A DNA stretch of 34,337 nucleotides from an uncultured Candidatus Saccharibacteria bacterium (GCA_964348775.1 CAYGDR010000001.1:1-34337); one strand, 5' to 3'. Numbered from the stretch's first letter, positions 10,652 to 28,260 are shown. Translations and numbers: made by a program. Notes: a model not told the origin generated them from the letters alone.

Positions 10652-10653
10652 AG

Positions 10654-12315
10654 CTATAGTATATCAACTACTCTTAGTCTTAGCTCCTCCCTGCCTCGAA
10701 AACGGGACAAGTCGAATGTTGCTAGAAGATTTACTATTTTATCTTTTTCAAGCGGGGTTTTAAATGAATCTAAGCCGGAAAAAAAAGAGACTGCCACGGC
10801 TTTATTCCTGTCCCCATCAGAAAAAATTATCTCCAGGTGCTCGCCGGAGCCATTTTTGCCGAATTTTTTCAAATTCTCAATTTTCACTCCCGGAAATGAA
10901 AAAACCGGTTTCTCGTTGCCTAAGCCAAACGGAGAAAGTTTCTCAATTTCTTTCCAATTTTTTGTTTTTACAAGCGAAAGATCAGAAGTCATATCGAAAG
11001 AAGCACTGTTATCGGCTTTCGATCTTTTTACTTTTCCAAATGATTGAGAAAGCGCATCTTCTAAAAAGTGAACTTTGTCGGTATGGATGGTAAATCCTCC
11101 TGCAAGCTCGTGCCCACCGAAATCGAGGAAATATTCTTTTGTTTCGGTCATAAGCTCCACCACTGACACAGAGCCATCACTCCTGCAGGAGCCTTTGATC
11201 GAATCATTATCGTCCTTGCCCCAGACAAAAACAGGCTTTTGATACAAATCAGACACTTTTCCCGCAACCAAGCCGAGCACTCCCACCCGCCAAGCAGGAT
11301 TGCCTATTACTATCACTTCTTTTTCTTCTCTCAAAGGACTCATGTCGAATTTTTTATTCACCTCGCGCATTATGCCAGTGACAATAGTCTTTCTTTCATC
11401 ATTTATTTTAGACAAATGGTCTGCAAGTACCCCAGCCTCCTTTGGATCATCGGTGGAAAGAAGCTCAAACGCCCGCATTGGGTTATCCATGCGGGAAGCG
11501 GCGTTGAGCCGAGGGGTCAGCATGTAGCCGATATCGTCTTCGGAGAGATATCTTTGATCTATATTCATTTTTGCGAGAAGCTTCTGCAAACCCGGTCTTC
11601 CAGATTTGCGGATGACCTTCATGCCAAAATGCGCGATGGCGCGGTTTTCTCCGGTGAGCGGAACCATGTCAGACAAGGTGGCAAGCCCAGCCATGTCTAG
11701 CATCCACTTCTCCGCACCTGGCCGGACTTTGAAATATTCGCCATATTTTTTTAGGAATCCTTGTGCCAGCTTGAAGGCCACGCCAGAACCGCAGAGCATT
11801 TTTTCCGGATAATTATCTACCTTTGGATTTAAAATCGCATAAGCGCGAGGCAGATTTTCTTGGGGCAAGTGATGGTCTGTGATGATCACATCCATGCCAT
11901 CGGCTTCCGCCTGTGCCACTTCAGAAAGCGCGGTAATGCCCAAGTCGACAGTGATGATAAGCTTGGTATTTGTCTTGGAAAACTGCCTGATTGCCTCCAT
12001 GTTTAGGCCATAGCCTTCGGAATTTCTCTGCGGGATATAAACTTCAAAATTTTTATAGCCGATAAGCTTGAAAAGGTCTTGCAAAATCACGGCTCCCGGC
12101 ACGCCGTCGCAGTCGTAGTCCGCATAAATGACTATTTTTTCTCCTCGGTCCACCGCTTCAAATATGCGCACGCAGGCGCGCTCCATATCCCGCATCAGAA
12201 ATGGATCATGAAAATCGCGCTCATAGTCGGGGTTTAGGAAAATCTCTGCCTCTTCTTCGCCAGAAATGCCCCGTTTTAGAAGAAGCTCTCTCAATAATTC
12301 CCCATATTTTTCCAT
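10654..12315 (-). CDS. recJ: Single-stranded-DNA-specific exonuclease RecJ
   Basis: DHH motifs (YADYDCDGV, TVDLGI, ITDHH) and a DHHA1 GGHELAGG motif. I place the start at Met53 of the tracked ORF (MEKYGELL..., ATG at 12313..12315), which avoids overlapping the divergent HIT gene. Confidence 0.88.
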   Translation of the reverse strand: MEKYGELLRELLLKRGISGEEEAEIFLNPDYERDFHDPFLMRDMERACVRIFEAVDRGEKIVIYADYDCDGVPGAVILQDLFKLIGYKNFEVYIPQRNSEGYGLNMEAIRQFSKTNTKLIITVDLGITALSEVAQAEADGMDVIITDHHLPQENLPRAYAILNPKVDNYPEKMLCGSGVAFKLAQGFLKKYGEYFKVRPGAEKWMLDMAGLATLSDMVPLTGENRAIAHFGMKVIRKSGRPGLQKLLAKMNIDQRYLSEDDIGYMLTPRLNAASRMDNPMRAFELLSTDDPKEAGVLADHLSKINDERKTIVTGIMREVNKKFDMSPLREEKEVIVIGNPAWRVGVLGLVAGKVSDLYQKPVFVWGKDDNDSIKGSCRSDGSVSVVELMTETKEYFLDFGGHELAGGFTIHTDKVHFLEDALSQSFGKVKRSKADNSASFDMTSDLSLVKTKNWKEIEKLSPFGLGNEKPVFSFPGVKIENLKKFGKNGSGEHLEIIFSDGDRNKAVAVSFFSGLDSFKTPLEKDKIVNLLATFDLSRFRGREELRLRVVDIL

Positions 12316-12351
12316 TGGGAAAATTCTAGCATAATTTGATATAATATACTC

Positions 12352-12768
12352 ATGACCGATAATAATTGCATATTCTGCAAAATAGTGGCCCGAGAAATAC
12401 CTGCTACGATAATCCACGAAGATGAGACCACGCTGGGACTTTTGGACATTGCGCCTGTAAATATAGGCCATGCGCTAGTAATACCAAAGGCGCACTACAA
12501 AAATATATACGAAACACCCGAGGAGATAATGACCGACATGATGAAAACAGTAAAAAAGCTCTCAAAAGCCATAAAAGAAGGCTTGAAGGCCGACGGCATA
12601 AATGTAACCATGAACAACGACCCCGCGGCCGGCCAGATAATATTTCATTCTCATATTCACATCATCCCCAGAATTGCAGACGACGGTTTTGGCCACTGGA
12701 AAGGCAAAAGAGGCTACCAGGAAGGAGAAAAAGACGAAGTAGTGAAAAAAATCACTGAAGCGCTTTAA
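12352..12768 (+). CDS. HIT-family (histidine triad) nucleotide hydrolase
   Basis: 138 aa. HSHIHIIP histidine triad. A TGaTATAAT extended -10 (12337..12345) lies 6 nt before the ATG. Confidence 0.88.
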   Translation: MTDNNCIFCKIVAREIPATIIHEDETTLGLLDIAPVNIGHALVIPKAHYKNIYETPEEIMTDMMKTVKKLSKAIKEGLKADGINVTMNNDPAAGQIIFHSHIHIIPRIADDGFGHWKGKRGYQEGEKDEVVKKITEAL

Positions 12769-12886: not shown

Positions 12887-13540
12887 GTGGAGACTTGGGA
12901 AATCGCACTGGTGGAATGCCTGCTCTTTGTTGGCCTGGCCTTTGCCTTACGGAGTTTTGTCAGGTACACGAAGGAGAAGACCGACATCGAAAAGGCGGAA
13001 AAAGATCGGGTAACCTACAACTGCCAGCGCATTGAATGGGCGGCAGAACACGGTCCATATTTTTGCGAAAATGTGGTCAGAGACAGTCTGGTCCTGGTGC
13101 GAAGGGATCTCTGCGAGGCAGAATACGCCGCATGGGAAGAACGGGTCAAGTCCGGACAAACTAAGCCGTACGACTCGATTGAGCTCGTGATCAAGCCGGC
13201 ATTCGTATTCCTCAAAGACAAATCCGCTCGCGACCATTTCATGTATGTCGGCTCATGGAAAGATGCCAAAAACTTGAAGCTGGAAGTGCTCCGACGCCTC
13301 AGCGGCCTCACCAAAGAAGAGTTTGAAGAGGCACAAAAGAGCAATTTTTGGCGATACAAGACTCACGGGTTCAAGGCCATGATCTACAGCACGACACAAC
13401 AAGTAGACAACATCCTTGTTCCTTTCGTTTCAAAAAAGGATCGCGAATGGCAAGCAGCGATGTTCGGTCAGCCAACCCTCGAGGAGGCGCGAACTAACTT
13501 GTTCGAGAAATTGCCGTCGCCCCTCAATACCGAGAACTAA
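12887..13540 (+). CDS. Hypothetical membrane-anchored protein on a GC-rich island
   Basis: 217 aa, GTG start, one N-terminal hydrophobic helix and no recognisable motif. GC is markedly higher than its neighbours (35 of 60 in the line at 13081 by hand count). Confidence 0.5.
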   Translation: METWEIALVECLLFVGLAFALRSFVRYTKEKTDIEKAEKDRVTYNCQRIEWAAEHGPYFCENVVRDSLVLVRRDLCEAEYAAWEERVKSGQTKPYDSIELVIKPAFVFLKDKSARDHFMYVGSWKDAKNLKLEVLRRLSGLTKEEFEEAQKSNFWRYKTHGFKAMIYSTTQQVDNILVPFVSKKDREWQAAMFGQPTLEEARTNLFEKLPSPLNTEN

Positions 13541-15674: not shown

Positions 15675-17042
15675 TTATTGATCTTCTTTCCACTCGTCCA
15701 CAAACCAGCCACCCGACGGCCCGCCGGAGAAATTAATGTTGGCAAGACCGGATTCATAGCTTATTACCGCTCCGTTGCTTAAGTGGATTTTATATGCGGT
15801 TACTTCCTTCATAGTAGCGTTATTTGAAATTTCCACCACGCCTTCCGGCGCGTAAAGTATGGCGCTTGAAGCATTGTTGGATTGAGTTATGGCGGTAGAG
15901 CTCGTGTTGTTTCTCTGGGAGAGGACCAGCATGTAGGACCCGGCAGTTCCGGACCCTTGGGCTTCAGAATTATTGCTAAATGTGATCTCCCCAGCCGAAC
16001 TGCTCCCTCCAGTACCCGCAATTATTACTCCGCTTAGCGCGCCATAGCTTAGATCCAGCTTGATCATTGAACCGTTGCTCGCATTGATGGTCCCGGTGAC
16101 CCATACGGTGCCAGTAAGAATGAGCGTGGCATTATTTGAAAGGGTTAAGTTGCCATTGATTTTTTTGGGGCCTAAAAAAGCAGCGTCGTCGTCGAGGGTA
16201 TAACTATTGATTGTGCCACCGGCTGTAGCATCCGCCTCCCATGCATCTATTTGCTCTTCGGAGATTGGGAATTCCTCTGCCACTGGATCCTCGAAATTGC
16301 TAAGATTGGGAGTGGTTTGGGTGCCGCTTACTGTGCAGTTGGTTTTCGTATCATATGTAGCGCTTCCATTGATAGTGCAATCAGAAATACTGTCTGATAC
16401 GGCATTTCCTGAAACTGTCGCACGAAGCAGGCTGGCCGAACTAGTAGAACCATTCACTGTAATATCTTCAAGAAAATGGGCTGTAGCATTTTGATCCACT
16501 TGTATTGCGTCGATCTTGCCGGTAGCTCCAGTCGCAATTGCGGTGCCGGTGATTCGAGCACCGTTATTCCCAACAATATTTCCGTTTGAGTAGACATTGC
16601 CGTTTACTTGCGAATTATTATCCATCCGCAAACCTCCCGCTCCCACCTGTACGCCATAGCCGAAAGAAACTCCAGGAGCGGTAGAAATGGTGATTTTTGT
16701 TTTTCTTTGCAAGCTAGAAACATTCCCAAGAGAGCTGATTTCTTTTTCGCTGGCAGAAACTGCAGTGATGGTAGTGGTGGCAGAATTTGAGTTTAGGGTA
16801 ATGGTCTCGCTTGCACCTATGGTCATGCTTTTTTTTATGCGGTATACCGCATCCTCGCTTCCAGACTCGGACAAGAAATAAGACTTTTTGGAATTTAGAT
16901 TTACATTTGCCGTGCGAAACTCGCGCACAGAGGGCGAAACCAGCCCGGCGATAATGGCAAGCGAGATGAAAAGGAAGAAAATCACGGCCACCAGCATGGC
17001 TGCACCTCTAGTTGTCTTGATTTTTTGTCCTGATTTTTTCAT
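15675..17042 (-). CDS. PilX-N-like pilus-associated protein with Ser/Thr/Asn/Gly-rich beta-helix-like body (putative tip or adhesin component)
   Basis: 455 aa. N-terminal RGAAMLVAVIFFLFISLAIIAG anchor as in PilX_N domains, then repetitive NG/SG/TG-rich segments. It is the last gene of the pilin block. Confidence 0.55.
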   Translation of the reverse strand: MKKSGQKIKTTRGAAMLVAVIFFLFISLAIIAGLVSPSVREFRTANVNLNSKKSYFLSESGSEDAVYRIKKSMTIGASETITLNSNSATTTITAVSASEKEISSLGNVSSLQRKTKITISTAPGVSFGYGVQVGAGGLRMDNNSQVNGNVYSNGNIVGNNGARITGTAIATGATGKIDAIQVDQNATAHFLEDITVNGSTSSASLLRATVSGNAVSDSISDCTINGSATYDTKTNCTVSGTQTTPNLSNFEDPVAEEFPISEEQIDAWEADATAGGTINSYTLDDDAAFLGPKKINGNLTLSNNATLILTGTVWVTGTINASNGSMIKLDLSYGALSGVIIAGTGGSSSAGEITFSNNSEAQGSGTAGSYMLVLSQRNNTSSTAITQSNNASSAILYAPEGVVEISNNATMKEVTAYKIHLSNGAVISYESGLANINFSGGPSGGWFVDEWKEDQ

Positions 17043-17055
17043 TTATAATTTTCAA

Positions 17056-17574
17056 TTACTCATCATAGTCTCCGCGGAGTACGACAGTATTATAAAAATC
17101 TGTAGTGCGGCTTAGCGCATCATTATTTGATCGGATAGTCATAAAAATTTTCACCGCCTTGCCTTTTGCAGTAATTATTTCGGCAAAGGAAAGCGCGCTG
17201 ACAGAAAGATTCCCGGGATTTAAATTGCCCAAAAGAACAGAGTTTTCCCGAAATTCCACATTTGTGCCTGCAAGGATAAACTGCACAGTCTTGTTTGCTC
17301 CTCCAGCATCGGTAGAGTTCAAGTTCAAATCAGCCGCGCTTATGGAACCTATTGCATATGCCTGCCGTATCTCACGAGCCATGCGCTCCATGATATTTGC
17401 CCCTCCTAGATGATCAGACTGCACGGTGGTCTCGCGAAAGGCCGTGGTCATAGTAATCATAGAATTTATCACCGCAAGGGAAAGGAGTGCAAATAGAGAG
17501 AGATAGAACAAAAGTTCCACCATTCCATACCCAGAGTTTTTATAAGCTCTGAAATTCTTCTGGTTTTTTATCAT
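17056..17574 (-). CDS. Type IV prepilin-like minor pilin
   Basis: 172 aa. Prepilin leader ...KNSG/YGMVELLFYLSLFALLSL with Glu at +5 after the Gly cleavage site. Confidence 0.7.
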   Translation of the reverse strand: MIKNQKNFRAYKNSGYGMVELLFYLSLFALLSLAVINSMITMTTAFRETTVQSDHLGGANIMERMAREIRQAYAIGSISAADLNLNSTDAGGANKTVQFILAGTNVEFRENSVLLGNLNPGNLSVSALSFAEIITAKGKAVKIFMTIRSNNDALSRTTDFYNTVVLRGDYDE

Positions 17575-18065
17575 GATGAAAAAATATCTAAAATATAAAA
17601 CGACAAGGTTTTTGATACTGCAGTTCCAGTTTCATTCCAAGATACTGTTATCGTAACTAATTTCGTGCCAGGATCATCCGTACCGGATGCGGAAATATCG
17701 TCTGTACTATCGTCTCTATTTACATTTGCAATGCTCACAGTGCGCGTAAAACTTCCTACTGTGTTCGGCGTGGAAGAAAGGGTCCAGGTTCCTCCGAAAA
17801 ATAGAGGATAATAGAGAGACCCTGCTGTCAGATTAGAAATATTTGACCAGGCATTGTCGCGCAAGATCCGCACAGCTTCGGCCCCCTCTTCGAGGAGAAA
17901 GGAGGCCTCGGCTACATGCACTGCCTGCCTTGAAACAAAAATGGATTTTTGGGCCACGGCCATGGCAGCGAGCATGGAAACAGTGATAATGGAAGCTACT
18001 ATCACGACTTCTACCATCAAAAAACCTTTTTGGAAGTTTTTAATTTTGTAATTTCCAATTTTCAT
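17571..18065 (-). CDS. Type IV prepilin-like minor pilin
   Basis: 164 aa. Leader ...FQKG/FLMVEVVIVASIITV with Glu at +5. It overlaps the next gene by 4 nt. Confidence 0.7.
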   Translation of the reverse strand: MKIGNYKIKNFQKGFLMVEVVIVASIITVSMLAAMAVAQKSIFVSRQAVHVAEASFLLEEGAEAVRILRDNAWSNISNLTAGSLYYPLFFGGTWTLSSTPNTVGSFTRTVSIANVNRDDSTDDISASGTDDPGTKLVTITVSWNETGTAVSKTLSFYILDIFSS

Positions 18066-18066
18066 C

Positions 18067-18175
18067 CCGTTAGTAATAGGGCGCGTACGCTTATGCGATG
18101 TTATCTAATATTTTATTGCTAATAATGTGTTTCATGTCTTTGTTGGATTCTATACGTCCGCGATTACTAACGGGA
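18067..18175. repeat. 109-nt intergenic element closed by a long inverted repeat
   Basis: CCCGTTAGTAAT (18067..18078) is the perfect reverse complement of ATTACTAACGGG (18164..18175). After a 4-nt bulge the stem continues as CGCG/CGCG and ACG/CGT. The element fills most of the spacer between the pilin and the minor-pilin genes. Confidence 0.7.
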
Positions 18176-18188
18176 TTCATTAAAAATT

Positions 18189-18656
18189 TTAATTTACGCT
18201 GGCAGCTCCGGTCGAAGAGATGGTTATAGTTTTTGAGTAAGAAGAGGTGGAGATAATTATAGTGCCAGTCTTCGATGGCACTCCGTAAATCCTGCTGAAA
18301 TATAAATTGCCGGAAGTCCCGCTCACGCCTCCCAAAGTAACATTGGTGATTGACGCAGGCGCCACAATATCTATCTCTGTATTGCTGCCTGCTCCTGCGG
18401 AATATGCCGTGCCTGTAAAAATTATAACTTTATCGGATTGGAAATGCACTCCGTATTCTGAAGAATTTACCGAAGCCAGAGTGTCTCCGCGGGATTTGTT
18501 TATGGCAGAAAGCGCGTCGCTGTAAGCCGCCTTTAACACCTGTCTTTCTTTCAAGCTTGAAAACTGGGGAAGCACTACCATGACCAAAATTCCCAAAACC
18601 GCAAATGTCACGAGCACCTCAATCGGCGTAATTCCTTTGTTGTAGATACTTCTCAC
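18189..18656 (-). CDS. Type IV pilin (prepilin-type N-terminal cleavage/methylation domain)
   Basis: 155 aa, GTG start. Leader MRSIYNKG/ITPIEVLVTFAVLGILVMVV with Glu at +5. It starts 15 nt after the RT stop codon. Confidence 0.75.
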   Translation of the reverse strand: MRSIYNKGITPIEVLVTFAVLGILVMVVLPQFSSLKERQVLKAAYSDALSAINKSRGDTLASVNSSEYGVHFQSDKVIIFTGTAYSAGAGSNTEIDIVAPASITNVTLGGVSGTSGNLYFSRIYGVPSKTGTIIISTSSYSKTITISSTGAASVN

Positions 18657-18671
18657 ACGATAATCATATCA

Positions 18672-19673
18672 CTAAACCTTTTCGATCTCTATTGATTTTT
18701 TCAGTTTGAAACTGTTTCCGTGTGAAATTAGTCCAAAATATGACTGTACTGTCTCCGGCTTCGGGTTATCCCTTAGAATTTTCAACATCCTCCTCTTTGT
18801 ACTGGTTCGGAGCACTCTATACCTCGGAAAATGCACCCAGCCAAGAAAATCCACTCCGGAAGCAAAAGTTTTGATGAAAACCTTGTCTGGATGCAATTCT
18901 AGTTTCAATTTTTCTTTCAGAAACTGGGCGATATATCGCCTATATTCAGATAATTCTTTTTTGTTGGCGCTCAAGATCACGAAGTCATCTGCGTAGCGGA
19001 TATAGTACTTCACTTTCAGTTCCCTTTTTATAAATTGATCAAATTCATTCATATACACATTCACCAAAAGCTGAGAGGTTAGATTCCCGAGCGGTAAACC
19101 CTTCGACCCGGAGGCGTCGCCTCCGGGTTTTGACGAGAAACTATCAATTACCTGACCCAAAAGCCAGAGAATGTCTGTGTCAAGGATGCCCTTTGACAGG
19201 ATAGATTTTAGGATATCGTGGTCGATATTGGCGAAGAATTTCTTGATGTCGCATTTGAGAACATGGCAGGTGCGGGTGTTGTTCTTGGAAACTTTGCGGA
19301 AGAAATATCTGAAACGATCCATGGCTTTATGAGTGCCTTTGTTTATCCGGCAGGAGTATGAGTCATGGACGAACTTTTTATCAAAGTATGGGTAGAGTGC
19401 TTTATAGAGGAGATGATGTACTACTCTGTCTCTTACTGTGGCCTTATGGATGTTTCTGGGCTTGGGGTCGGAGATGTTGAAAGCTGTATAATCGCCGTGT
19501 TGGTAAGTTTTGTTTTTTAGATCGTCGAGAAGTTTGAATATATTGTCAGCCAGCTTGGCTTGAAACAAGATAATATCTTTTTTGTGTTTCTTGTCGCGCA
19601 AAAATTCTTGCCAGGCTTGGAGAAGTTTTTCTGTGGTTATGATACTATCGTAGGTATGAATAAACCTTTTCAT
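18672..19673 (-). CDS. DGR-type reverse transcriptase
   Basis: 333 aa. RT motifs include LPLGNLTSQLLVNVY (the GxxxSQ motif characteristic of DGR RTs) and IRYADDFVI (YADD). Its compact size, with no maturase, endonuclease or RNase H extension, also fits. It is adjacent to the TR. Confidence 0.9.
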   Translation of the reverse strand: MKRFIHTYDSIITTEKLLQAWQEFLRDKKHKKDIILFQAKLADNIFKLLDDLKNKTYQHGDYTAFNISDPKPRNIHKATVRDRVVHHLLYKALYPYFDKKFVHDSYSCRINKGTHKAMDRFRYFFRKVSKNNTRTCHVLKCDIKKFFANIDHDILKSILSKGILDTDILWLLGQVIDSFSSKPGGDASGSKGLPLGNLTSQLLVNVYMNEFDQFIKRELKVKYYIRYADDFVILSANKKELSEYRRYIAQFLKEKLKLELHPDKVFIKTFASGVDFLGWVHFPRYRVLRTSTKRRMLKILRDNPKPETVQSYFGLISHGNSFKLKKSIEIEKV

Positions 19674-20052
19674 AATTCTGGGACCCCCCCCCGCAGCGCC
19701 CTCGGCGCTTTTAAAAGCAAAAACGGCCTACTCTCTTTGGTTTAAAGTATACAATGACTTCCCCAAGGCGCACCGTTATATTCTGGGCGGAAAAATCGAA
19801 GATTATTTTCTCGGACTTTTAGAAAATATATTTATTTCAATATATCTTCCGCCGGAAACCAAAATACATCGCTTAATCGTAGCAATTTCCAAGCTCGATG
19901 GGATAAAGTTTTTCTTGCAAATAGCCTGGGAAAACAAGTGTGTTAGGGATATTAAATATTCGGAACTCTCCGAACAACTTCGGGAGATCGGCCGGATGCT
20001 CGGCGGCTGGAAAAAGGGGCTTGAAAAGAGTTTCGAAAAGAAAACTCCCTAG
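19660..20052 (+). CDS. Avd-like four-helix-bundle accessory protein (23S rRNA IVS protein family), opposite strand to the RT; no canonical start in frame
   Basis: The frame is open from 19660 to the TAG at 20050..20052. It translates as ...AYSLWFKVYNDFPKAHRYILGGKIEDYFLGLLENIFISIYLPPETK...KLDGIKFFLQIAWENKCVRDIKYSELSEQLREIGRMLGGWKKGLEKSFEKKTP, the pattern of CPR four-helix-bundle/Avd-family proteins as I recall it. There is no ATG, GTG or TTG before the last about 45 codons. Deleting one C from the C9 tract (19684..19692) would fuse the frame to the ATG at 19656. Confidence 0.6.
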   Translation: MNLFIILGPPPAAPSALLKAKTAYSLWFKVYNDFPKAHRYILGGKIEDYFLGLLENIFISIYLPPETKIHRLIVAISKLDGIKFFLQIAWENKCVRDIKYSELSEQLREIGRMLGGWKKGLEKSFEKKTP

Positions 20053-20066
20053 GTATGCGCTAGGGA
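20046..20066 (-). terminator. Hairpin plus U-run immediately 3' of the TR (minus strand)
   Basis: TCCCTAG-N7-CTAGGGA, followed on the minus strand by GTTTTCTTTTCG. It lies 15 nt downstream of the TR 3' end and overlaps the Avd-like stop codon on the plus strand. Confidence 0.45.
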
Positions 20067-20081
20067 GAAACATTTGAGTTT

Positions 20082-20198
20082 CGGGAGACTACATGATGCT
20101 CGTAGTCGGCGTTCCAAGTGTTGTCGTTCGAGACCGAGTTCCGGTTCACATTGAGCTGACCGTTGTCATCGAAGTTCACATTGGCAACGAAGAATTGT
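20082..20198 (-). repeat. DGR template repeat (TR)
   Basis: It aligns without gaps to 20539..20655 (offset 457 nt). In the 112-bp core, 17 of the 18 differences are positions where this copy has A on the minus strand. In the VR reading frame it carries 7 AAC and 2 AAT codons. Confidence 0.9.
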
Positions 20199-20500
20199 AC
20201 GGTGAGCCATCTACCTCACTGCCCGCCTTACCTGCAAGTTTAAAGACTGCAAAAGAGACAAAGCTGTATATTATTCGAGGCCTAAAAGCCTACCAGCGCA
20301 CCGCACCAACTTTTATGTTTTTTGTTTTAAAAAAGAATCCACTCTCCTCCAAGCCATAGCCGGGAGAATTCTCAAATTAATTTTTAAGCAATCATGGCTC
20401 GAAGTTTTTGTCCGCGAGCATTTCCAAATTGCATATTTAGTATATCAAAAAGAAAGACCCCCAGCCCAGTGACAAAGTGTCAAAGGATCCGAGGGCCCAA

Positions 20501-20515
20501 ACCCGCCTTGCGGGT
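20501..20515 (-). promoter_or_regulatory. GC-rich hairpin just downstream of the VR and target stop (candidate DGR target-recognition hairpin or terminator)
   Basis: The minus strand has ACCCGC-AAG-GCGGGT, about 23 nt past the VR 3' end and 13 nt past the stop codon. Confidence 0.45.
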
Positions 20516-20528
20516 AAAAGATAAAAAA

Positions 20529-21164
20529 CTACTGTTGCCGGGAGACTACACGATGCCCGAAGCCGGCGTACCAAGTGTAGTCGAACGAGACCGAGTCCCG
20601 GTACACGCTGAGCTGACCGCGGCCATCGAAGTACACAACGGCAACGAAGACATTGGAGAGGTCTTCGAGGACCGCTTCGCCGTCGGTGGTGCAGACGAAG
20701 AAGGTGGCGTAGCCGCCCTTGCGGAGTTTGCCTTTGTGATCGACGCAGAACTTGATGCCCTGCTCCCACTGGAGGCGCCGAGCTTCGAGCTCAGAGGCAG
20801 TCTTGCCGAGGAAATCGGCAAACTTGCCATTCACCACCAGCTTGTCCACCCGCGTCTTCGTCTTCGACGCCGGCTTGGACTTCACGCCGAGGAGCGCAGG
20901 GTCGTAGCCACCGGAGAACACCCGCTTGGCATCGTCGTCGGTAGTGGTGGCGTCGGTGGGGTCGATCTCCACACCCTCGAAGAGCGGCTCGAGGTAGACC
21001 TTCGGCTCGGGCGGAACTTCCGGCGCGGACTTCGGCTGTGTTCTCGTCAGCACCCATTCATCCCCCAAGTACTCTTGCGCGATGTCCGGCCCGCCCATCT
21101 TGTTGACAACCGCCGTCATGTCGACGCCGCCGATCAAAACCGTGTAATCGTATTTCTGAGCCAT
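20529..21164 (-). CDS. DGR target (variable) protein with C-terminal VR
   Basis: 211 aa, preceded by a strong SD (GGAGGTGAAAAATG). The C-terminal ...NVFVAVVYFDGRGQLSVYRDSVSFDYTWYAGFGHRVVSRQQ is encoded by the VR, and its ending resembles the GFR-type terminus of C-type-lectin-fold DGR targets. GC is about 60-67% in hand-counted lines. I see no obvious signal peptide. Confidence 0.85.
   Translation of the reverse strand: MAQKYDYTVLIGGVDMTAVVNKMGGPDIAQEYLGDEWVLTRTQPKSAPEVPPEPKVYLEPLFEGVEIDPTDATTTDDDAKRVFSGGYDPALLGVKSKPASKTKTRVDKLVVNGKFADFLGKTASELEARRLQWEQGIKFCVDHKGKLRKGGYATFFVCTTDGEAVLEDLSNVFVAVVYFDGRGQLSVYRDSVSFDYTWYAGFGHRVVSRQQ
20539..20655 (-). repeat. DGR variable repeat (VR)
   Basis: This is the counterpart of the TR. 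TR AAC/AAT codons appear here as GTT, TAC, CGC, AGC, TAC, GAC, TTC, TAC and TAC. The VR ends 7 nt before the target stop codon. Confidence 0.9.
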
Positions 21165-21259
21165 TTTTCACCTCCGACTTATAGTCGGCACTTTTCGCAT
21201 ACCATATAGGCAGCGCGCCGCGAAATGCGGCATTTCAAAGACCACGAGTATTCTTATAT

Positions 21260-21288
21260 ATTATACACTTTCTAAGCAAAAAAGTCAA
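21260..21288 (-). promoter_or_regulatory. Near-consensus sigma70 promoter for the DGR target gene, inside the 3' end of pilC
   Basis: Minus strand: TTGACT (21283..21288), a 17-nt spacer, then TATAAT (21260..21265). An approximately 88-nt leader follows, containing small GC hairpins and the SD. Confidence 0.65.
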
Positions 21289-22513
21289 TAAATTGCAAGT
21301 AGCCGATGTTGCCAAGTATCGAATAAAGCGGAGAGATCATGGATATCGCAAAAAAGCCTACTCCTCCGCCAATCACCACCATAAGGAGAGGCTCAATGAT
21401 GGTGGAGAGGTTTTTGGTTTTATTTTCAATCTCTTCCTCGTAAAATATAGCGATGTCTAGAAGCATATCGGAAAGCTTGCCGGTTTCTTCGCCCACCTGG
21501 ATCATTTCTGACATCATCACCGGATAAAGTTTCTGGTTTTCCTGAAAAGTCTGATAGAAAGGCGAGCCTTTTTCTATTGCAGTCTTTGTGGCTTCTAGCA
21601 CTCGGCGATAATATATATTCTGCACCACATCTTCGGTGATCTCGACCGCTCTAGTAATAGAAACCCCCGAGAGAAGAAGCGAAGATAGCGTCCTTGCCGT
21701 ACGAGCGGTATTTAATTCCCTGTCCAAAGTGCCGATAACAGGCATCCGGATAACCAGGTAGTCTATGTACTTGGAAAGAATTTTAGATCGGATAAGCGCA
21801 AAGATCGCGACAAAAGCGGAAATAACTATTAGAAATGTAAGGATTAGGTGATTGGAAAAGAAATTGCCCATCCAAATGAGCACCCTGGTCGAAGTCGGAA
21901 GCACTACCCCAAGCTCTTTGAATGTGCCGGCAAGCGTGGGCACAACAAAAGCAAACATGAGTATGCCGATAATGAGCATGGCAGACATTATCACTCCTGG
22001 GTAAATCAGGGCTCCGCCTATTTTTTTGTTTAGGGCATGGGCTTTTTCTAAATTCGCGCCGATTTCGCCAAGGGCGTTCGACAAATTTCCTGACTCCTCT
22101 CCGGCGCGGGTCATGGAAACAAAAAGGCTGGAAAAGACATCAGGGAATTTTGCCAGGCCGGAAGAAAGCGTGCCTCCTTGGTTTATGTCATTTCCCAAGG
22201 AAATTAGAATTTTTTTGAAAGCCTGGTTCTTGGTCTGCTTTTCAAGCACCGAAAGCGCTCGCGCGAGAGAAAGGCCGGCGCGGAGCATTCCGCCCAAGTT
22301 CTTTGTAAAAATTATCTGCTCGGCTGCACTTACCCTGCCGAAAAACCTTTCAAAAAAAGCTGTAAAGTTGAAACCCTCCGTCTTTTCGTTCACGGATATC
22401 GGAGTATTGCCTTTGGCCCTTAAGTCTTTAGAAAGGGCAAATCGGTCCGGGGCCTCGAGCACTCCTTCTATCACTTCCCCTGTCTTTGTTTTTGCTTTAT
22501 ATTTGAATAGCAT
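21272..22513 (-). CDS. pilC: Type IV pilus assembly platform protein PilC (GspF family)
   Basis: 413 aa. Two GspF-type repeats with three TM segments, and typical LSxGxxLxxAL blocks. Confidence 0.9.
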   Translation of the reverse strand: MLFKYKAKTKTGEVIEGVLEAPDRFALSKDLRAKGNTPISVNEKTEGFNFTAFFERFFGRVSAAEQIIFTKNLGGMLRAGLSLARALSVLEKQTKNQAFKKILISLGNDINQGGTLSSGLAKFPDVFSSLFVSMTRAGEESGNLSNALGEIGANLEKAHALNKKIGGALIYPGVIMSAMLIIGILMFAFVVPTLAGTFKELGVVLPTSTRVLIWMGNFFSNHLILTFLIVISAFVAIFALIRSKILSKYIDYLVIRMPVIGTLDRELNTARTARTLSSLLLSGVSITRAVEITEDVVQNIYYRRVLEATKTAIEKGSPFYQTFQENQKLYPVMMSEMIQVGEETGKLSDMLLDIAIFYEEEIENKTKNLSTIIEPLLMVVIGGGVGFFAISMISPLYSILGNIGYLQFIDFFA

Positions 22514-22580
22514 CCCGGTACTAAAATTTTAAACTTTTATTTATAGTGGTCATTTTTTGTAATCAAAAATTTAGTACGGG
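22514..22580. repeat. Imperfect inverted repeat spanning the pilB-pilC spacer
   Basis: CCCGGTACTAAAATTTT (22514..22530) pairs with AAAAATTTAGTACGGG (22565..22580), with two single-base bulges. The element begins at the base after the pilC start codon position and ends 6 nt before the pilB stop. Confidence 0.6.
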
Positions 22581-22586
22581 ACAGAT

Positions 22587-24326
22587 CTATTCAGAAACCA
22601 CCCTAAATACTTCCTCCAAGGTGGTCACGCCCAAAACCGCCTGAAATACTCCGTCTTCGATCATAGTCATCATGCCTTCTTTCTTTGCCTGCGCCTCTAT
22701 TTCATCCTGGGAGCTGCCGTGAACCACCATTTCCTTTATGGCCGCGCTCATTTTAAGCACTTCGTGTATGCCTGTACGGCCGGAGTAGCCGTCTTCGGAC
22801 TCAGGGCTTGGTTTTGCTTTTTGGAAAGGAACTTTGTCCCAGGAAATGCTTGGGTCGATAATATTTTCTTTTTTCAGCATCTCGAGCGTGCGATCGAGGT
22901 CTACAATCTTTGCTAGGTTTTTAACTTCGTCGTCTGACAGAAAATATTCTTCTTTGCTCGGGCTTAATTTTCTGACCAACCTTTGTGCCATGATTATTTT
23001 TACAGTGGAAATGATAAGAAAAGGCTCCACTCCCATGTCGATAAGCCTAGGGATGGCTCCGGCGGCAGAATTGGTGTGGATAGTAGACAGAACCAAATGG
23101 CCCGTAAGCGAAGCGTTGATAGCAAGGCCCGCAGTCTCCACATCTCTTATCTCGCCCACCATCACAATATCCGGGTCTTGCCGGAGAAGAGACCGCAAGC
23201 CATTTGCAAATGTGAGCCCGATCTCCGGCTTTACTTGGGTCTGGTTCACTCTTGGCATCTGGTATTCAATAGGGTCTTCTACTGTCGAGATATTTACCTC
23301 CGGCTTATTCAAAATATCAAGCATTGTGTAAAGCGTAGTGGTCTTCCCAGAGCCTGTGGGCCCGGTTGCCAGCACCATGCCCGTTTTTAATTTGAGCGAT
23401 GCATATATCCTCTCCAAACTCTCTCCATGAAAGCCTAAAGTTTCAAGAGTATAGCCATGAGTGTTTTCTTTCAAAATTCTGATCACCGTCTTTTCGCCGA
23501 AAAAAGTGGGCAGAGTAGAAACACGGAAAGAAATCTTTTCGCCGTTCTGGTCTATCTTAAATCTGCCGTCTTGCGGAAGGCGCTTTTCGTCAAGCTTTAA
23601 GTTCGAAAGGACTTTGATGCGGGCAGTAATCCCGGATCCTGCGCTTTTATCAAGAACCATTGCATCATGCAGTATGCCATCAATGCGGTATCTCACTGTC
23701 AGATCTTTTTCGCCTGGTTCAATGTGTATATCAGAAGCATTTTGGAGTATCGCGTGAAAAATGAGCGAGTCCACTATCTTTACCACCGGCAAGTCTTCTG
23801 CCAGCTCTTTGTCAGACTTATCGCTGTCTCCCTTGCTAGAATCCCGCATCGAGTCGGATTCTTTTTGGATGATGTTGCCGAATTCTGCCTGGAGACTCTT
23901 TCGATACTGCACCAGCATGGACCGGATGGAAGCTTCGTCCGTCAGGCGAGGCAGAATTTTCATGCCGGAGCGCTTCTTTATAAAGTCTATAACCGGAAGA
24001 TCTTCCACATCAAGCATGGCCACTTCCAAGCCCAGCTGGCTTTTTTTGTAGGCAATAATATTGTAGTTTCTGGCAATCGGCTCGGGCACCAGAGAGAGCA
24101 CGGAAAAATCTATTTTTTGATTTTCGAGACTGACAAAAGGAATGCCTAGCGCAAAAGCCTCCATCCTCCGAAGGTCGGATTCAGAAATACTCCCGGAAGA
24201 CAAGAGAATGTCTCCGACTTTTTGATTTTTCTCTTCCGCTTTTTTCTTGGCGTCTTCAAACTGCTCCCTGGTTACAAGTTTTGAATCTAAAATAATCTTT
24301 TGGAACTCTGTCTCATCTATCTGCAT
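22587..24326 (-). CDS. pilB: Type IV pilus assembly ATPase PilB (GspE family)
   Basis: 579 aa. T2SSE N-terminal domain, Walker A GPTGSGKTTT, Asp box, Walker B and His box (LVLSTIHTN). Confidence 0.93.
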   Translation of the reverse strand: MQIDETEFQKIILDSKLVTREQFEDAKKKAEEKNQKVGDILLSSGSISESDLRRMEAFALGIPFVSLENQKIDFSVLSLVPEPIARNYNIIAYKKSQLGLEVAMLDVEDLPVIDFIKKRSGMKILPRLTDEASIRSMLVQYRKSLQAEFGNIIQKESDSMRDSSKGDSDKSDKELAEDLPVVKIVDSLIFHAILQNASDIHIEPGEKDLTVRYRIDGILHDAMVLDKSAGSGITARIKVLSNLKLDEKRLPQDGRFKIDQNGEKISFRVSTLPTFFGEKTVIRILKENTHGYTLETLGFHGESLERIYASLKLKTGMVLATGPTGSGKTTTLYTMLDILNKPEVNISTVEDPIEYQMPRVNQTQVKPEIGLTFANGLRSLLRQDPDIVMVGEIRDVETAGLAINASLTGHLVLSTIHTNSAAGAIPRLIDMGVEPFLIISTVKIIMAQRLVRKLSPSKEEYFLSDDEVKNLAKIVDLDRTLEMLKKENIIDPSISWDKVPFQKAKPSPESEDGYSGRTGIHEVLKMSAAIKEMVVHGSSQDEIEAQAKKEGMMTMIEDGVFQAVLGVTTLEEVFRVVSE

Positions 24327-24393: not shown

Positions 24394-25563
24394 CTAAAAC
24401 ATACTCTCGCACCTTTGCCTGTACTCTTCTTGTATTATTTGAGCGCAATATGGCTTTAAGTCTTCTTTGGGCTTGCGATAAGAGGACATTATGCCGAAAA
24501 CTCTACTGTAGCAGTCATTTCTTGCTCCTTCCCCCGAGGCCCCGCATATGGCAAATGGCACCGTGCGGTCCCCCACTGCATAGCTAGAACCGGCATTTAT
24601 GACAACGCAGTAATCATTCCATTTTTGGTTCGGCATAAGATTACACAGTTCGAAAGTTTTACCCGACTGCCCCAGCGCAATTGGGTGAATCTGCCGAGCC
24701 AGCCCGTCAAAACACATCCTTTGGTGTTCAGTGTTCTTGACTTTGAGGCATAATTCTCCAACTTTTTTGATATCCCCCTTAAAAAGCTGATAAGCCAGCG
24801 AAGGCTGGTTGGACCAGCAGCCCAGGAGGTATTTTTGATCGATCCGCGGATCATTGCATGGATACATGGGATCTTCCGGCTTTACCCAGCGATCCGGGGA
24901 GGGCTCCCCATCATGCACTGCCCAGATATTTTCCATAAAAATTCCATCGTAGCAGTTGAAGGCGGGAAATTCCGGCATCGTGTCAATGGCAATATCGCAG
25001 GTCTCAAGGGCTTCAACTATGTTTTTATAGCCTACATTCGCCAAAAATCCATGGCCTATAGCATGGGCGCATTGGCTATAAACTGAAGGCCCTTCTTTCC
25101 GGCACTCCGCAAAGCTTTTTTCTACCTGGCTCATGCCTCCATTTCCAATAGCATGAAGCAAAAAACCATGATAGCAGGAGGAGAGAAAATAATCCTGGCA
25201 TTTTACTAAGCCGGCCGGTCCGTATTTTTCATACAGATAATCTCCCACAGTATGATTTAGAAGGTGCGTCTCTCCAGTAAAAGGCATTCCTGACCTAAAA
25301 AGGTCTATTTGCGCCTGCTCTGGGCCCACTCTTTCTATCAGTCTTTTATAAAGAACCACCTGCTGGTCGAGATTTTGCGTTGCCTTAATTTCTGTGATTT
25401 CGGTGCTAGAAACTTTATCCAAGCCAATTCCACCGCCGAGCGACAATAGTCCAAACTTGAAAATAATCGCGACAATAGCGATTATTATACTCACAAAAAG
25501 CGCGTATCGCGTTAGGTCGATAGCGCTTGCAGTTTTTTTTAATTTTGCCAAATAATGCCTCAT
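24394..25563 (-). CDS. Membrane-anchored Cys/His-rich protein, paralog 3 of a tandem trio (unassigned family)
   Basis: 389 aa, N-terminal TM helix. Motifs CYHGFLLHAIG, CAHAIGHGF and NCYDGIFMEN, shared with the two upstream genes. Confidence 0.6.
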   Translation of the reverse strand: MRHYLAKLKKTASAIDLTRYALFVSIIIAIVAIIFKFGLLSLGGGIGLDKVSSTEITEIKATQNLDQQVVLYKRLIERVGPEQAQIDLFRSGMPFTGETHLLNHTVGDYLYEKYGPAGLVKCQDYFLSSCYHGFLLHAIGNGGMSQVEKSFAECRKEGPSVYSQCAHAIGHGFLANVGYKNIVEALETCDIAIDTMPEFPAFNCYDGIFMENIWAVHDGEPSPDRWVKPEDPMYPCNDPRIDQKYLLGCWSNQPSLAYQLFKGDIKKVGELCLKVKNTEHQRMCFDGLARQIHPIALGQSGKTFELCNLMPNQKWNDYCVVINAGSSYAVGDRTVPFAICGASGEGARNDCYSRVFGIMSSYRKPKEDLKPYCAQIIQEEYRQRCESMF

Positions 25564-25580
25564 AATTTGAGCATGTTAAG

Positions 25581-26810
25581 CTAATCGTTCGGATTTTGAA
25601 TGATAGAATTTTGTCCTGACATTGATGATACCCCGAGACAATAATTTTGTAAATCAACCGGAGCTTGCTTGCAGGCTTTGGGCAATTGATTTTTGATTAC
25701 AGGACTGGAAGGAGACATGACGCCTAGCATCGAAAAACAAGCTGTTTTAAATTTATCCTCAAGACTATTACAAAAGGCGACTGATTCGGCCACTTTGGTC
25801 GGAATAGTGGAAAGCGTACTCGATACCATGGCCGGATAGCAATCTCTTTCAAAATTCGGATCATCTTTTTGAGGTATAGCGCAGACTGACTTTAGTCTTG
25901 CAAGCTCAAAATTTCGCGAAGCGCCTATTATACCCAAGGAATGCATCTTGCACCTTTTAGCCCCGTTGGGTACTTGAGCGCTCGAGCAAAGATCAAAAAC
26001 TTTTTTTGGGTCATGGTCAAACTTAACCAAAGCTACATGCACTATTTCCTCCCAGCAGCCCTCGGCAAATTTGCCGACCTGGGCCCTACACAAAGTCTCG
26101 AGCTCCTCCATCCTAGCCGGCCAGTTGAGCCACGATGCAGGAGCCAGATCGTGCGATACAAGATTGAGCGCGGTTTGATATTCCATAAAAACTCCGGAAA
26201 TACAAAAACGGTTCTGTGCCACCTCCTTAAACACTTCGCACAGATCCAGGGCTTTCGGAATACTCGCGTCAGTCTGCACTAAAAGCAAGTGCCCGATTAT
26301 ATGGTTGCAATCCGCGCGAGGTGTTTCGCCGCAAATAGTGGGTATCACAGCCTTACTCAAGCTCTTTTCCGGCAAAGAAAGCACATAGCTCTCAATCACT
26401 CCGTGGATTGATCCATAGCTGCATCTAGTCGGCATATTTTGTACCATATCTTTCCAAATACTCGGATCGCGCTTGTAAGAACCCCAGCCGATGCCGTGAG
26501 CGATCAAGTGGCAGCCGATAGCGCTCTTGTCTATTTGCTGCAGACTATCTAAAACTTTAAAGCTAAGCTCATAGCTATTTTTCTCTCCCAGCTTTTTAAA
26601 TTCTTCCGCGTAGCAATTTTCTTTACCCTTGTAGAGAGCGACATTTTTCACGCAGTAGTCTGAAACTTCAGCCGCGATTTTATAAAAAGATCCTTGGTCT
26701 TTTGAACTCGCAGATTTATTAAGACGATCTCTGAGGCTCACAGCCGCCAGAACGATCAGCAAGAAAATAAAAATGTTGAGTAATTGCGATGTTTTGATCT
26801 TAGATAGCAT
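25581..26810 (-). CDS. Membrane-anchored Cys/His-rich protein, paralog 2 (unassigned family)
   Basis: 409 aa, N-terminal TM helix. Motifs GCHLIAHGIGW, DCNHIIGHLL and FCISGVFMEY. Confidence 0.6.
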   Translation of the reverse strand: MLSKIKTSQLLNIFIFLLIVLAAVSLRDRLNKSASSKDQGSFYKIAAEVSDYCVKNVALYKGKENCYAEEFKKLGEKNSYELSFKVLDSLQQIDKSAIGCHLIAHGIGWGSYKRDPSIWKDMVQNMPTRCSYGSIHGVIESYVLSLPEKSLSKAVIPTICGETPRADCNHIIGHLLLVQTDASIPKALDLCEVFKEVAQNRFCISGVFMEYQTALNLVSHDLAPASWLNWPARMEELETLCRAQVGKFAEGCWEEIVHVALVKFDHDPKKVFDLCSSAQVPNGAKRCKMHSLGIIGASRNFELARLKSVCAIPQKDDPNFERDCYPAMVSSTLSTIPTKVAESVAFCNSLEDKFKTACFSMLGVMSPSSPVIKNQLPKACKQAPVDLQNYCLGVSSMSGQNSIIQNPND

Positions 26811-28155
26811 ATTGCTTTAACATTATTTTTATTCTTTCAAGGCAAGCCAACCTTCTCTCGCCTAATTTTTCACAAAGCATATTAGCAGAATTTTTGAAAT
26901 CACCATATTTTTGAAATATGCTTTCTACGGCTCCACCAATAGTGCATATTTCGACTCCTTCCGTGCTTGGCATTTGGCCACATTGTTCCAAGATGATAGA
27001 CGCTTTACCGAGGGAAGTCTGCGCCACATAATATCCTAGAGATTCATAACATGTCTCCCGAAGTAGCGTATGTGGTCCCAGAGAACAATTTTTACCTACT
27101 GAAACCAGGGACCCATTGAGAGCGCCGCCCAAAAATACCTGACTCTGGTATCTGGCGCAATTACGATGGTAGCGTTCGTCAAGATCCGTGCAGAATTTCC
27201 AGGGATTTTTTGCTTCAAAAAAACCACCTGACGAAGATGAAACATTCTCCATGAAAACTCCGTCATAGCAATATTGCCTGTAACGCTCGGTTAAAATGTC
27301 GCAATCAGACAAGGCTTGATTAAGGTTTCCATTTTCCCATGTGTATATGCCGTGTCCCGTACCATGTATGCACCCGGTATAACCCTCTGTAAGTTCGGAT
27401 GGAAAAAGTTTCAGACATTCGATTTCTATGTCTTTGATCTTATTGGTGCCTTCATTTAAGAGCATCGCTTCGGTAACGCCATGGAAGCAGCCGAAAGCAA
27501 AGGCCGTGTCGCAGATTTTTATGCCTTCCAGGCCCGATTTTTTATAAGACAAATTTCCTACAACATGCGCAAACTCGTGGGCGTTCCCCACCACTTGGCC
27601 GTTTACGATAAAAGCTTCCTTTATATAATTCCACCCGTCCTTCGGATTCTCTTGGCTCAAAAGCTTTACAAATTCGATCTGGCGGCCATAATCAAAATTT
27701 CTAAAATCCAAAACAGAGGTATTCTCACTGAAAGAAAAACTGCTTTTTCTCTCTTCGCCCTTCTTTAGAACTTCAACTGTCATCACCAGGCTCGGGAAAA
27801 GGTGGTCATGCATCGGCCAGATGCCGGGCTTCTCAAGCCTAAAAGAAAATGATTCGCCTTTCTCTAGGCCCTTGCAAGCATCAAACTTGCTCCCCAAGCA
27901 TCCTCCCGGCTCCGGATAAAGAGTATGGCTGGGATGAAAATTCGAAGCCGGCCAGTGAAGCCGTTCTCCTTGGTTTACCCAGGCAATAGTGGATCCTGCC
28001 GTCGTAATAATTTTATCTGGGAAAAATCCTTCGTCATTTATGAAAACAGTGAGATTTTCGGAGCTAGAGCCGTTCTCCTTAGAATTGTTCTTAAAAAAGA
28101 CAAAAGAGAGAAGCCCCAATACCAAAACCATTAAAATAATGTTATTTTTTGTCAT
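26800..28155 (-). CDS. Membrane-anchored cupredoxin-like domain fused to a Cys/His-rich paralog domain (paralog 1)
   Basis: 451 aa, N-terminal TM helix. A cupredoxin-like segment (ITTAGSTIAWVNQGERLHWPASNFHPSH...PGIWPMHDHLFPSLVMTVEV) is followed by the motifs GCFHGVTEA, GCIHGTGHGIY and YCYDGVFMEN. Confidence 0.6.
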   Translation of the reverse strand: MTKNNIILMVLVLGLLSFVFFKNNSKENGSSSENLTVFINDEGFFPDKIITTAGSTIAWVNQGERLHWPASNFHPSHTLYPEPGGCLGSKFDACKGLEKGESFSFRLEKPGIWPMHDHLFPSLVMTVEVLKKGEERKSSFSFSENTSVLDFRNFDYGRQIEFVKLLSQENPKDGWNYIKEAFIVNGQVVGNAHEFAHVVGNLSYKKSGLEGIKICDTAFAFGCFHGVTEAMLLNEGTNKIKDIEIECLKLFPSELTEGYTGCIHGTGHGIYTWENGNLNQALSDCDILTERYRQYCYDGVFMENVSSSSGGFFEAKNPWKFCTDLDERYHRNCARYQSQVFLGGALNGSLVSVGKNCSLGPHTLLRETCYESLGYYVAQTSLGKASIILEQCGQMPSTEGVEICTIGGAVESIFQKYGDFKNSANMLCEKLGERRLACLERIKIMLKQYAI

Positions 28156-28260
28156 TTTTCGGTAAGTATTGCCTAAATATACTCTCTATGATATCATACT
28201 TAGCGTACAAAGTCCTGTGGCCCAGGGCTTTTATTTTTATCAAAATTTAATAAAAAGATC

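Follow-up and report, generated by a model that had tools for sequence, protein, structure and literature searches.

The stretch of DNA analyzed here, referred to below as the window, is a complete 34,337-nt contig from an uncultured Candidatus Saccharibacteria bacterium and carries a diversity-generating retroelement (DGR) inside a type IV pilus operon. Patescibacteria, in which DGRs are unusually abundant, are thought to depend on hosts to which they attach in part through type IV pili; a conserved DGR–pilus operon would have been a direct handle on the function of the DGR target protein. The role of the small, leaderless DGR targets of Patescibacteria is an acknowledged open question (PMC8144416). 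The original prediction, made from the sequence of the window, had placed the DGR between the platform gene pilC and the pilins, with the minus-strand order pilB, pilC, target with its variable repeat (VR), template repeat (TR), reverse transcriptase (RT), pilin, two minor pilins, and a PilX-like protein, and had remarked that no DGR nested in a type IV pilus operon seemed to have been characterized. Coordinates, strand, and order proved correct, and no published link between DGRs and type IV pilus operons came up in literature searches. The DGR components named at the time were all recovered, but the list was incomplete, since the accessory gene avd on the opposite strand had been missed. The locus comprises the following features, listed in the direction of pilus operon transcription:

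22587..24326, minus strand: pilB, assembly ATPase, 579 aa; Pfam T2SSE (E 4.8e-122) plus an MshEN N-terminal domain
21272..22513, minus strand: pilC, platform protein, 413 aa; Pfam T2SSF (E 3e-53) in two stretches
21260..21288, minus strand: cassette promoter TTGACT-17-TATAAT, an 11/12 match and the best of the region; −35 box within the last pilC codons
20529..21164, minus strand: DGR target, 211 aa; N-terminal module, Pro-rich linker, and conserved C-terminal domain with the VR
20539..20650, minus strand: VR, 112 nt, target codons 172-209; 84% identical to the TR
20501..20515, minus strand: GC hairpin ACCCGC-aag-GCGGGT, 6-bp stem, 14 nt past the target stop; part of the minimum-free-energy fold
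20082..20193, minus strand: TR, 112 nt; 10 AAC/AAT codons in the VR frame
20045..20067, minus strand: hairpin with T-run just past the 3' end of the TR; overlaps the stop of the convergent avd; 8-bp stem, then TTTTCTTTTC (terminator scan)
19660..20052, plus strand: avd, DGR accessory gene, between TR and RT and antisense to the rest of the locus
19684..19692, plus strand: C9 homopolymer, G9 as read along the RT strand; lies both in the 5' part of the avd coding region and in the 5' untranslated region (UTR) of the RT
18672..19673, minus strand: RT, 333 aa; RVT_1 (E 1.1e-25), LGNLTSQ at residue 195 and YADD at 227
18189..18656, minus strand: pilin1, prepilin-like, 155 aa; GTG start, N-terminus KG/ITPIEVLV followed by a hydrophobic helix
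17571..18065, minus strand: pilin2, minor-pilin-like, 164 aa; N-terminus KG/FLMVEV, weak PilV/ComGD matches
17056..17574, minus strand: pilin3, minor-pilin-like, 172 aa; N-terminus SG/YGMVEL, weak ComGF/GspI matches
15675..17042, minus strand: PilX-like large protein, 455 aa; N-terminal membrane helix RGAAMLVAVIFF and a repeat-rich body

The DGR of the window is genuine, complete, and self-contained. VR and TR differ at 18 positions, 17 of which are TR adenines, the remaining mismatch being a T->C change at 20607, and the RT motifs satisfy the DGR pattern [I/L/V]GxxxSQ plus YxDD. The avd product matches the Pfam family bAvd (PF22296) with 47.9 bits (cut-off 40) and the NCBIfam model DivGenRetAVD with E 1.7e-15, a score that lies under that model's cut-off of 80; its open frame has no canonical in-frame start, the ATG at 19656 being out of frame. 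No second VR or remote target was found in the window, and an Rfam scan of the whole window returned no RNA family at threshold. A look-up of exact copies of the window proteins, made in search of VR variants, turned up nothing but identical copies (for the target, L001; L-numbers are locus labels throughout).

The window was compared with two sets of loci, onto all 160 of which its proteins were mapped: an RT-centered set of 80 loci around the closest RTs, drawn from species-representative genomes, and a pilC-centered set of 80 metagenomic loci around the closest pilC genes, which are 65-74% identical. The 80 Patescibacteria RTs share 59-75% identity with that of the window and belong to Patescibacteria-type metagenome-assembled genomes (of the Paceibacteria/'Nomurabacteria' kind), except for two records filed under other phyla; the window accordingly comes from a Patescibacteria (CPR) bacterium of this kind. 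In 73 of the 80 loci avd is likewise divergent from the RT, and the remaining 7 have no upstream sequence. The GC hairpin that follows the target is, by analogy with other DGRs, a candidate DGR target-recognition stem-loop; as regards the other homing signal, a GC-rich IMH at the VR 3' end, VR and TR of the window locus have GTAGTCTCCCG in common and diverge after it. Directly 3' of the TR, the arrangement TTTCTCC-stem-loop-stem-GGAGTTTT, or a close variant of it, recurs almost throughout the 22 related loci that were inspected (L003-L025). This second hairpin may be an intrinsic terminator that serves both avd, which converges on it, and the TR transcript; or it may be a structural part of the TR RNA with a role in priming.

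From the promoter, the post-TR hairpin, and the conservation of both, we infer that the strong cassette promoter would yield target and TR as one RNA ending at this hairpin. RT and Avd would then copy the TR RNA into adenine-mutagenized cDNA, which would replace the VR and so recode about 14 positions on three C-terminal β-strands of the target.

How the DGR came to lie in the pilus operon is suggested by the same junction in relatives. In the 48 pilC-centered loci with a detectable pilin1, the gap from pilC to pilin1 has a median of 8 nt, and the two genes are contiguous in 46; the larger gap in the other two is in both cases due to a non-DGR insert. In 18 further loci, where the pilins are divergent, the distance from pilC to tpiA is mostly 3.3-3.5 kb and nowhere leaves room for a DGR, compared with 5.6 kb in the window. 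A DGR between pilC and pilin1 was seen in none of the 80 pilC-centered and none of the 80 RT-centered loci. At the sequence level, PilC of the relatives ends in ...PLYSILGNIG-stop or a close variant in all 18 cases inspected, and the ATG of pilin1 lies at or just past the pilC stop, overlapping it in several (TAATG). PilC of the window alone is extended, by nine codons (YLQFIDFFA, 21275..21301) and a stop codon (21272..21274) that derive from the cassette, and the added codons include the cassette −35 box. This extension, together with the GTG of pilin1 at the position homologous to the ATG of the relatives, indicates that the cassette inserted exactly at the stop/start overlap. There it spans ~2.6 kb (~21301..18657) and consists, in order, of the promoter, the GC-rich target with its VR, a hairpin, the TR, the hairpin/terminator, avd on the opposite strand, and the RT. 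Both junctions are reproduced with 100% identity on three independent contigs from two European Nucleotide Archive (ENA) assemblies, of which L001 and L164 cover pilC and the target and L163 runs from the avd 5' end through the RT and pilin1 to pgk; misassembly is therefore unlikely. Together, these comparisons point to a derived, lineage-specific insertion as the origin of the DGR's placement in the pilus operon.

Such an insertion would have replaced the pilC stop codon, adding nine residues to PilC, and broken the translational coupling between pilC and pilin1. Cut off from pilBC in this way, the pilins begin only 15 nt behind the RT and so probably either share the RT transcript or depend on an internal promoter of low strength; a candidate for the latter is TAGAGA-17-TATGAT, whose end lies 7 nt before the pilin1 GTG.

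The original prediction had drawn attention to a near-consensus target promoter inside the last codons of pilC and to the 15 nt between the RT stop and the pilin GTG, taking the latter as a sign of co-transcription. Sequence, position, and spacing are all as described, but the promoter belongs to the cassette, and neither feature speaks for integration into a pilus operon in particular. When the strict pattern TTGAC[AT]-N16-18-TATAAT was searched on both strands of 2.18 Mb of loci, 50 matches were obtained, ~28 of which precede a DGR target. From the strict promoter down to the RT start, the distance is 1492-2138 nt (median 1662) in 23 RT-centered loci and 1615 nt in the window, and in several loci the −35 box falls inside the end of the upstream open reading frame (ORF), as it does in the window. 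The next co-directional ORF begins ≤60 nt from the RT stop in ~36 of 78 loci. Promoter position and tight RT-to-next-gene spacing are thus generic traits of the Patescibacteria cassette, and since they are found wherever the cassette sits, the arguments they offered for pilus integration are not pilus-specific.

The pilus operon is part of a conserved block of genes, in which tig, ppa, and nusA are divergent from pilB-pilC-pilin1-pilin2-pilin3-pilX-tpiA-pgk; past pgk the block continues with hit on the opposite strand and then recJ-rnhA-comEC-sod-mbl-glyA. In relatives, DGR cassettes sit elsewhere in or near this block:

between pgk and hit: L011, L032, L104, and L146/147
between tpiA and pgk: L054
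between hit and recJ: L080
between recJ and rnhA: L019 and L017
beside tig: L043
3.7 kb upstream of pilB: L067
a few kb past mbl: L055 and L037

The ~2.6-kb cassette thus occurs at at least six different junctions of the block, always co-oriented and with its neighbors undisrupted. In a neighbor-joining tree of the RTs, those sited in the block are scattered over several subclades, and the site between pgk and hit is common to three of them. The RTs closest to that of the window (72-75% identity; L003, L013, L004, and L006) have no pilus genes within 10 kb.

Genes unrelated to DGRs are found at the same junctions. Inserts are present at 8 of 42 junctions between pgk and hit, and the pilus operon itself has received cargo at two places:

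between pilB and pilC, six loci (L090, L091, L123, L149, L157, and L160): pairs of Gp49-like toxin and helix-turn-helix (HTH) antitoxin, or a PemK-like toxin
between pilC and pilin1, three loci (L096, L104, and L109): a Fic-like gene flanked by a duplicated pilC 3' end, and ORFs of unknown kind

The insert of L109 is a gene for a GC-rich 196-aa membrane protein with a promoter at its start very like that of the window; it was considered as a related cassette and dropped, the match being confined to the promoter hexamers and a few flanking bases. In L091, an orphan gene of the target family (L091:2859-3344; 161 aa, 53% GC in a locus of 39% GC) lies between the toxin-antitoxin pair and pilC, and neither a TR nor an RT for it was found on its 15.6-kb contig. 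The window has further inserts of its own at other junctions of the block:

24394-28155, minus strand: three tandem Cys-rich paralogues (389, 409, and 451 aa) that cross-match one another, between nusA and pilB
12887-13540, plus strand: ORF of 217 aa, 51% GC, no family match, between pgk and hit, where relatives have a DGR or other inserts
31948-32664, minus strand: short-chain dehydrogenase gene in a GC-rich island (57-60% GC), convergent with tig, where the relative L043 has a DGR

The Cys-rich paralogues have no family match, and only L094 has a homologue (53% identity), which lies upstream of pilB. The GC-rich stretch at 32.0-32.6 kb had been a candidate DGR target and was rejected on recognizing it as the dehydrogenase gene. 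These three sites lend support to an insertion hotspot. As a separate observation, GC skew and AT skew switch sign at ~28150-28260, where gene orientation flips; this could mark a replication origin or be plain coding-strand composition.

Since cassettes and unrelated cargo occupy many junctions of the block, the pilus linkage would reflect where cassettes land or survive. The cassette appears to behave as a small mobile unit, and the block junctions as general landing sites for small cargo genes. Of the two readings offered originally, a pilus partner or an insertion hotspot, we therefore favor the second, which synteny and the other cargo support, while the partnership with the pilus, although conceivable, found no support. 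In sum, we consider it likely that a Patescibacteria-type DGR cassette inserted at the pilC stop/pilin1 start, and that its linkage to the pilus genes reflects landing or survival sites with no demonstrated joint function. The relation between DGR and pilus would then be a real but loose regional association and no conserved functional unit. Because the nesting seen in the window is a one-off insertion, it does not supply the handle on target function that a conserved operon would have given. In our view the by-products of the analysis outweigh the nesting in interest, namely, a cassette hopping within one block, a target fold without known relatives, a repeat tract in avd, and the GC richness of the targets.

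The target belongs to a family of 616 proteins (E<1e-5), all unannotated and from Patescibacteria. It has no Pfam or NCBIfam match and only one weak match in PHROGs, to a family of unknown function. Its AlphaFold model is confident (pLDDT 91.7, predicted TM-score [pTM] 0.75, from a 69-sequence alignment), and in this model the variable codons alternate along the last three β-strands. A C-type lectin fold, which had been suggested for the target, was not recovered: a Foldseek search against 350,542 PDB chains and BFVD gave nothing at E<=0.001, the best hits being SH2 domains with TM<0.2, and a profile search of PDB sequences gave no match. Nor did Foldseek find structural similarity to pilins. 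The fold might conceivably still be a very divergent variant of the C-type lectin. A confidently modeled fold that has no known relative and is shared by a family of more than 600 challenges the expectation that DGR targets are C-type lectins.

The original prediction had noted that the target has no prepilin leader or obvious signal peptide, and this extends well beyond the window: a signal peptide, a membrane segment, or a prepilin leader was found in none of 125 proteins, nearly all of them target-family members and the window target included. The target is a leaderless and probably cytoplasmic protein. The absence of leaders agrees with the published description of DGR targets in the candidate phyla radiation (CPR), which have no membrane or other known domains and for which it is an open question whether they are membrane-bound (PMC8144416).

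The N-terminal module of the target (~45 residues, YDYTVLIGGVD.TAV.NKMGGP; window 21015-21164, minus strand) is rare, with only 12 matches when a 50-residue profile was searched against 1.84 billion proteins. The module, recorded besides the window in P0004, P0005, P0126, and P0128, also occurs fused to a different C-terminal domain ending in ...W.WLD....PALRF, and proteins of that type are probably another kind of DGR target. The occurrence of one module on two C-terminal domains fits the modular architecture described for DGR targets; the 12 matches point to no partner protein. The target gene also stands out in composition, with 61% GC and 82% GC at third codon positions (GC3), against 44-52% GC3 in its neighbors and 43.5% GC in its surroundings. 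Target genes of this clade are far richer in GC than the genomes they belong to: across 51 related loci their median excess is 9.8 points in GC and 19.5 points in GC3, while the RT lies 4 points under its neighbors. A and T are equally depleted in the target genes of the clade, so the GC richness is not simple adenine avoidance.

The length of the homopolymer at the 5' end of avd is not the same in two assemblies of one population. Over 5666 nt, the independent contig L163 matches the window exactly except for this tract, which has 11 C (L163:131-141) instead of 9; C11 brings an upstream ATG in frame with avd (MNKPFHNSGTPPPAAPS...), whereas the C9 of the window leaves it out of frame. A C tract of 7-13 nt is present at the avd 5' end in ~64 of the 80 related loci, and another ~7 have dinucleotide repeats there (~71 of 80 in total); the avd 5' ends covered were those of L003-L082, L104, L146, and L147. 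An in-frame ATG for avd is found in only about a third of the related loci. It is possible that the tract is a slipped-strand on/off switch of Avd and hence of mutagenesis, which may in this way be phase-variable; alternatives are a sequencing error in the G/C run and a role confined to the UTR. To our knowledge, slipped-strand phase variation has not been shown for any DGR, and a literature search found no report of repeat-tract phase variation in these elements.

Several observations weigh against reading the pilus linkage as a matter of landing sites, and most of them bear on the foremost alternative, i.e., that the diversified protein works with the type IV or competence pilus, as a variable ligand-binding accessory or a cytoplasmic adaptor, and that selection keeps cassettes close for co-expression. 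After RT, Avd, and targets, PilB is the most recurrent neighbor family of the 80 related RTs (10 loci), followed by PilC with 7 loci; these are the top non-DGR neighbors. For PilB, 2.8 loci would be expected if each 0.8-Mb genome has two pilB paralogues, the flanks adding up to 1.12 Mb. The excess has a Poisson p of ~7e-4, or 0.011 with three paralogues, a statistic that ignores shared ancestry and varies with the number of paralogues assumed. In 10-15 of the 80 species-level genomes and in three metagenomic loci, a cassette lies within the pilus-containing block or adjoins it, and the orphan target-family gene between pilB and pilC in L091 is a second, independent embedding of the family in a pilus operon. 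Such recurrence could come from selection for closeness to pilus genes. Moreover, no mobility mechanism has been identified for the cassette, although an integrase, terminal repeats, and a target-site duplication were not systematically looked for, and transcription and current activity of the DGR are both inferred from the sequence.

Coupling to the pilus can also claim the 15 nt that separate the RT stop from pilin1, as well as a precedent, in that DGRs diversify the tip adhesins of type V pili in Bacteroides (bioRxiv 10.1101/2024.11.15.621889). Against it, the position is not conserved, the other sites adjoin glycolysis and DNA-repair genes, and unrelated cargo uses the same junctions. The co-occurrence of DGRs with pilus loci holds for PilB near 10 of the 80 related RTs but fails for the closest RTs, which are without pilus genes in their surroundings. 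In addition, the target is served by a promoter of its own and is set apart from the pilins by a terminator-like hairpin, and none of the 125 proteins mentioned above, nearly all of them family members, has an export or membrane signal. We therefore regard such coupling as unlikely. A more elaborate form of it, in which the leaderless hypervariable protein works with the pilus, for instance, as a specificity factor for host attachment or DNA uptake, and so retains cassettes nearby, while slippage in the avd poly-C tract switches mutagenesis, strikes us as a little less likely again; if true, it would make the window the tightest-integrated example of an unrecognized pilus–DGR partnership.

A different kind of advantage would be regulatory. 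The insertion might have been selected for altered and variable expression of the pilins, now uncoupled from pilB and pilC and placed behind the RT and an antisense avd with a slippage-prone tract. The native overlap of pilC stop and pilin1 start has indeed been lost, with ATG replaced by GTG, and a terminator-like hairpin and an antisense gene now stand between the pilBC transcript and the pilins. The poly-G run in the 5' UTR of the RT, 9 or 11 nt long in the two assemblies, lies upstream of pilins that start just past the RT stop. This arrangement is, however, a single occurrence, and the cassette is compactly spaced wherever it sits, so that no special adaptation is required; we think this explanation improbable.

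That pilC-DGR-pilin1 is the old state, lost in relatives, could appeal to the presence of DGRs in the same block in several lineages, but the cassette would have to have been deleted without a scar, and the overlapping stop and start restored, separately in no fewer than 64 related operons, and the PilC extension is unique to the window, which leaves this history very improbable indeed. Least credible of all, and close to negligible, is a DGR joined to the pilus operon by metagenome misassembly, as might be suspected of a metagenome contig in which a target of 61% GC sits in 43.5% GC surroundings, since L001, L164, and L163 span the junctions without a mismatch and GC-rich targets are clade-wide and no sign of foreign reads.

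The pilus genes that received the cassette form an otherwise recognizable set. PilB of the window is 62-84% identical to its orthologues in more than 80 related loci, and pilin2, pilin3, and the PilX-like gene keep their position among relatives. All three pilins have Gly at −1, Glu at +5, and N-terminal hydrophobicity maxima of 2.3-2.6, i.e., a class III signal is present. Pilin1 has weak matches to ComGE, GspG, PilA, and N_methyl, and the hidden Markov model (HMM) matches of the pilins (N_methyl and the ComG, GspG, and PilV models) are all under curated cut-offs. The 455-aa PilX-like protein has no family match in Pfam or NCBIfam, and its single-sequence AlphaFold model (pLDDT 40) is unusable, so that the β-helix named in the original prediction found no confirmation. 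No prepilin peptidase (PilD/ComC), PilT, or PilMNO was found among the annotated ORFs of the window; they could be elsewhere in the genome. The conserved block that contains the pilus operon also has, at 8689-12471 of the window (minus strand), the genes for RecJ, RNase H, and a ComEC with Competence and DUF4131 domains. With these genes in the block and ComG-type models as the best matches of the pilins, the pilus may serve DNA uptake as a competence pilus.

Set beside known type IV or Com-type competence pilus operons of monoderms and CPR, the window is alike in that several prepilin-like genes come after PilB-PilC, together with a large PilX-like gene, and in encoding ComEC, RecJ, and RNase H in the same block. 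It differs in that a retroelement interrupts the operon, in that the pilins match known models weakly, and in that prepilin peptidase, PilT, and PilMNO are missing from its annotated ORFs. The Bacteroides type V pili resemble the window in the genetic linkage of a DGR to pilus genes, and the cassettes there are also horizontally mobile. Their target, however, is itself a pilin-like adhesin: it carries a signal peptide and a lipobox, and its gene comes after those for stalk and anchor. Their mobility is due to conjugative elements, none of which is present in the window; here, in contrast, the pilus is of the type IV/Com kind and the target is no pilin and lacks an export signal. The avd tract recalls the simple-sequence-repeat contingency loci of Neisseria, Haemophilus, and Campylobacter, being a tract in the 5' coding region whose length sets the frame and differs between two assemblies of one population. 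It departs from them in lying also in the 5' UTR of the RT, where it is possibly a ribosome-binding or structural element.

Compared with the prototype DGR of Bordetella phage BPP-1 (mtd-avd-TR-brt), the element of the window is alike in the adenine pattern of mutagenic retrohoming from TR to VR, in the pairing of Avd with RT, and in having the VR close the target gene, with a GC-rich stem-loop after it. In the phage, avd lies on the same strand between target and TR, whereas in the window it is antisense and divergent from the RT; and Mtd is a C-type lectin fold on the phage tail fiber, whereas the target of the window is cellular and leaderless and has no C-type lectin match.

The closest likeness is to the DGRs of Patescibacteria/CPR, of which Paul et al. 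2017 is said to be the first survey. The literature searched on these elements held no description of a divergent avd with a repeat tract, a consensus promoter, a post-TR hairpin, or GC-rich targets. The Patescibacteria/CPR DGRs correspond to 'DGR clade 2' of Roux et al. 2021 (PMC8144416). The window shares with this clade the DGR-type RT, the adenine-specific TR/VR pair, and Avd, as well as a small, C-terminally diversified target without membrane or known domain. Nothing essential differs, and the particularity of the window is the insertion site within a pilus operon. The element thus belongs to a CPR DGR clade already known, in a position so far seen once.

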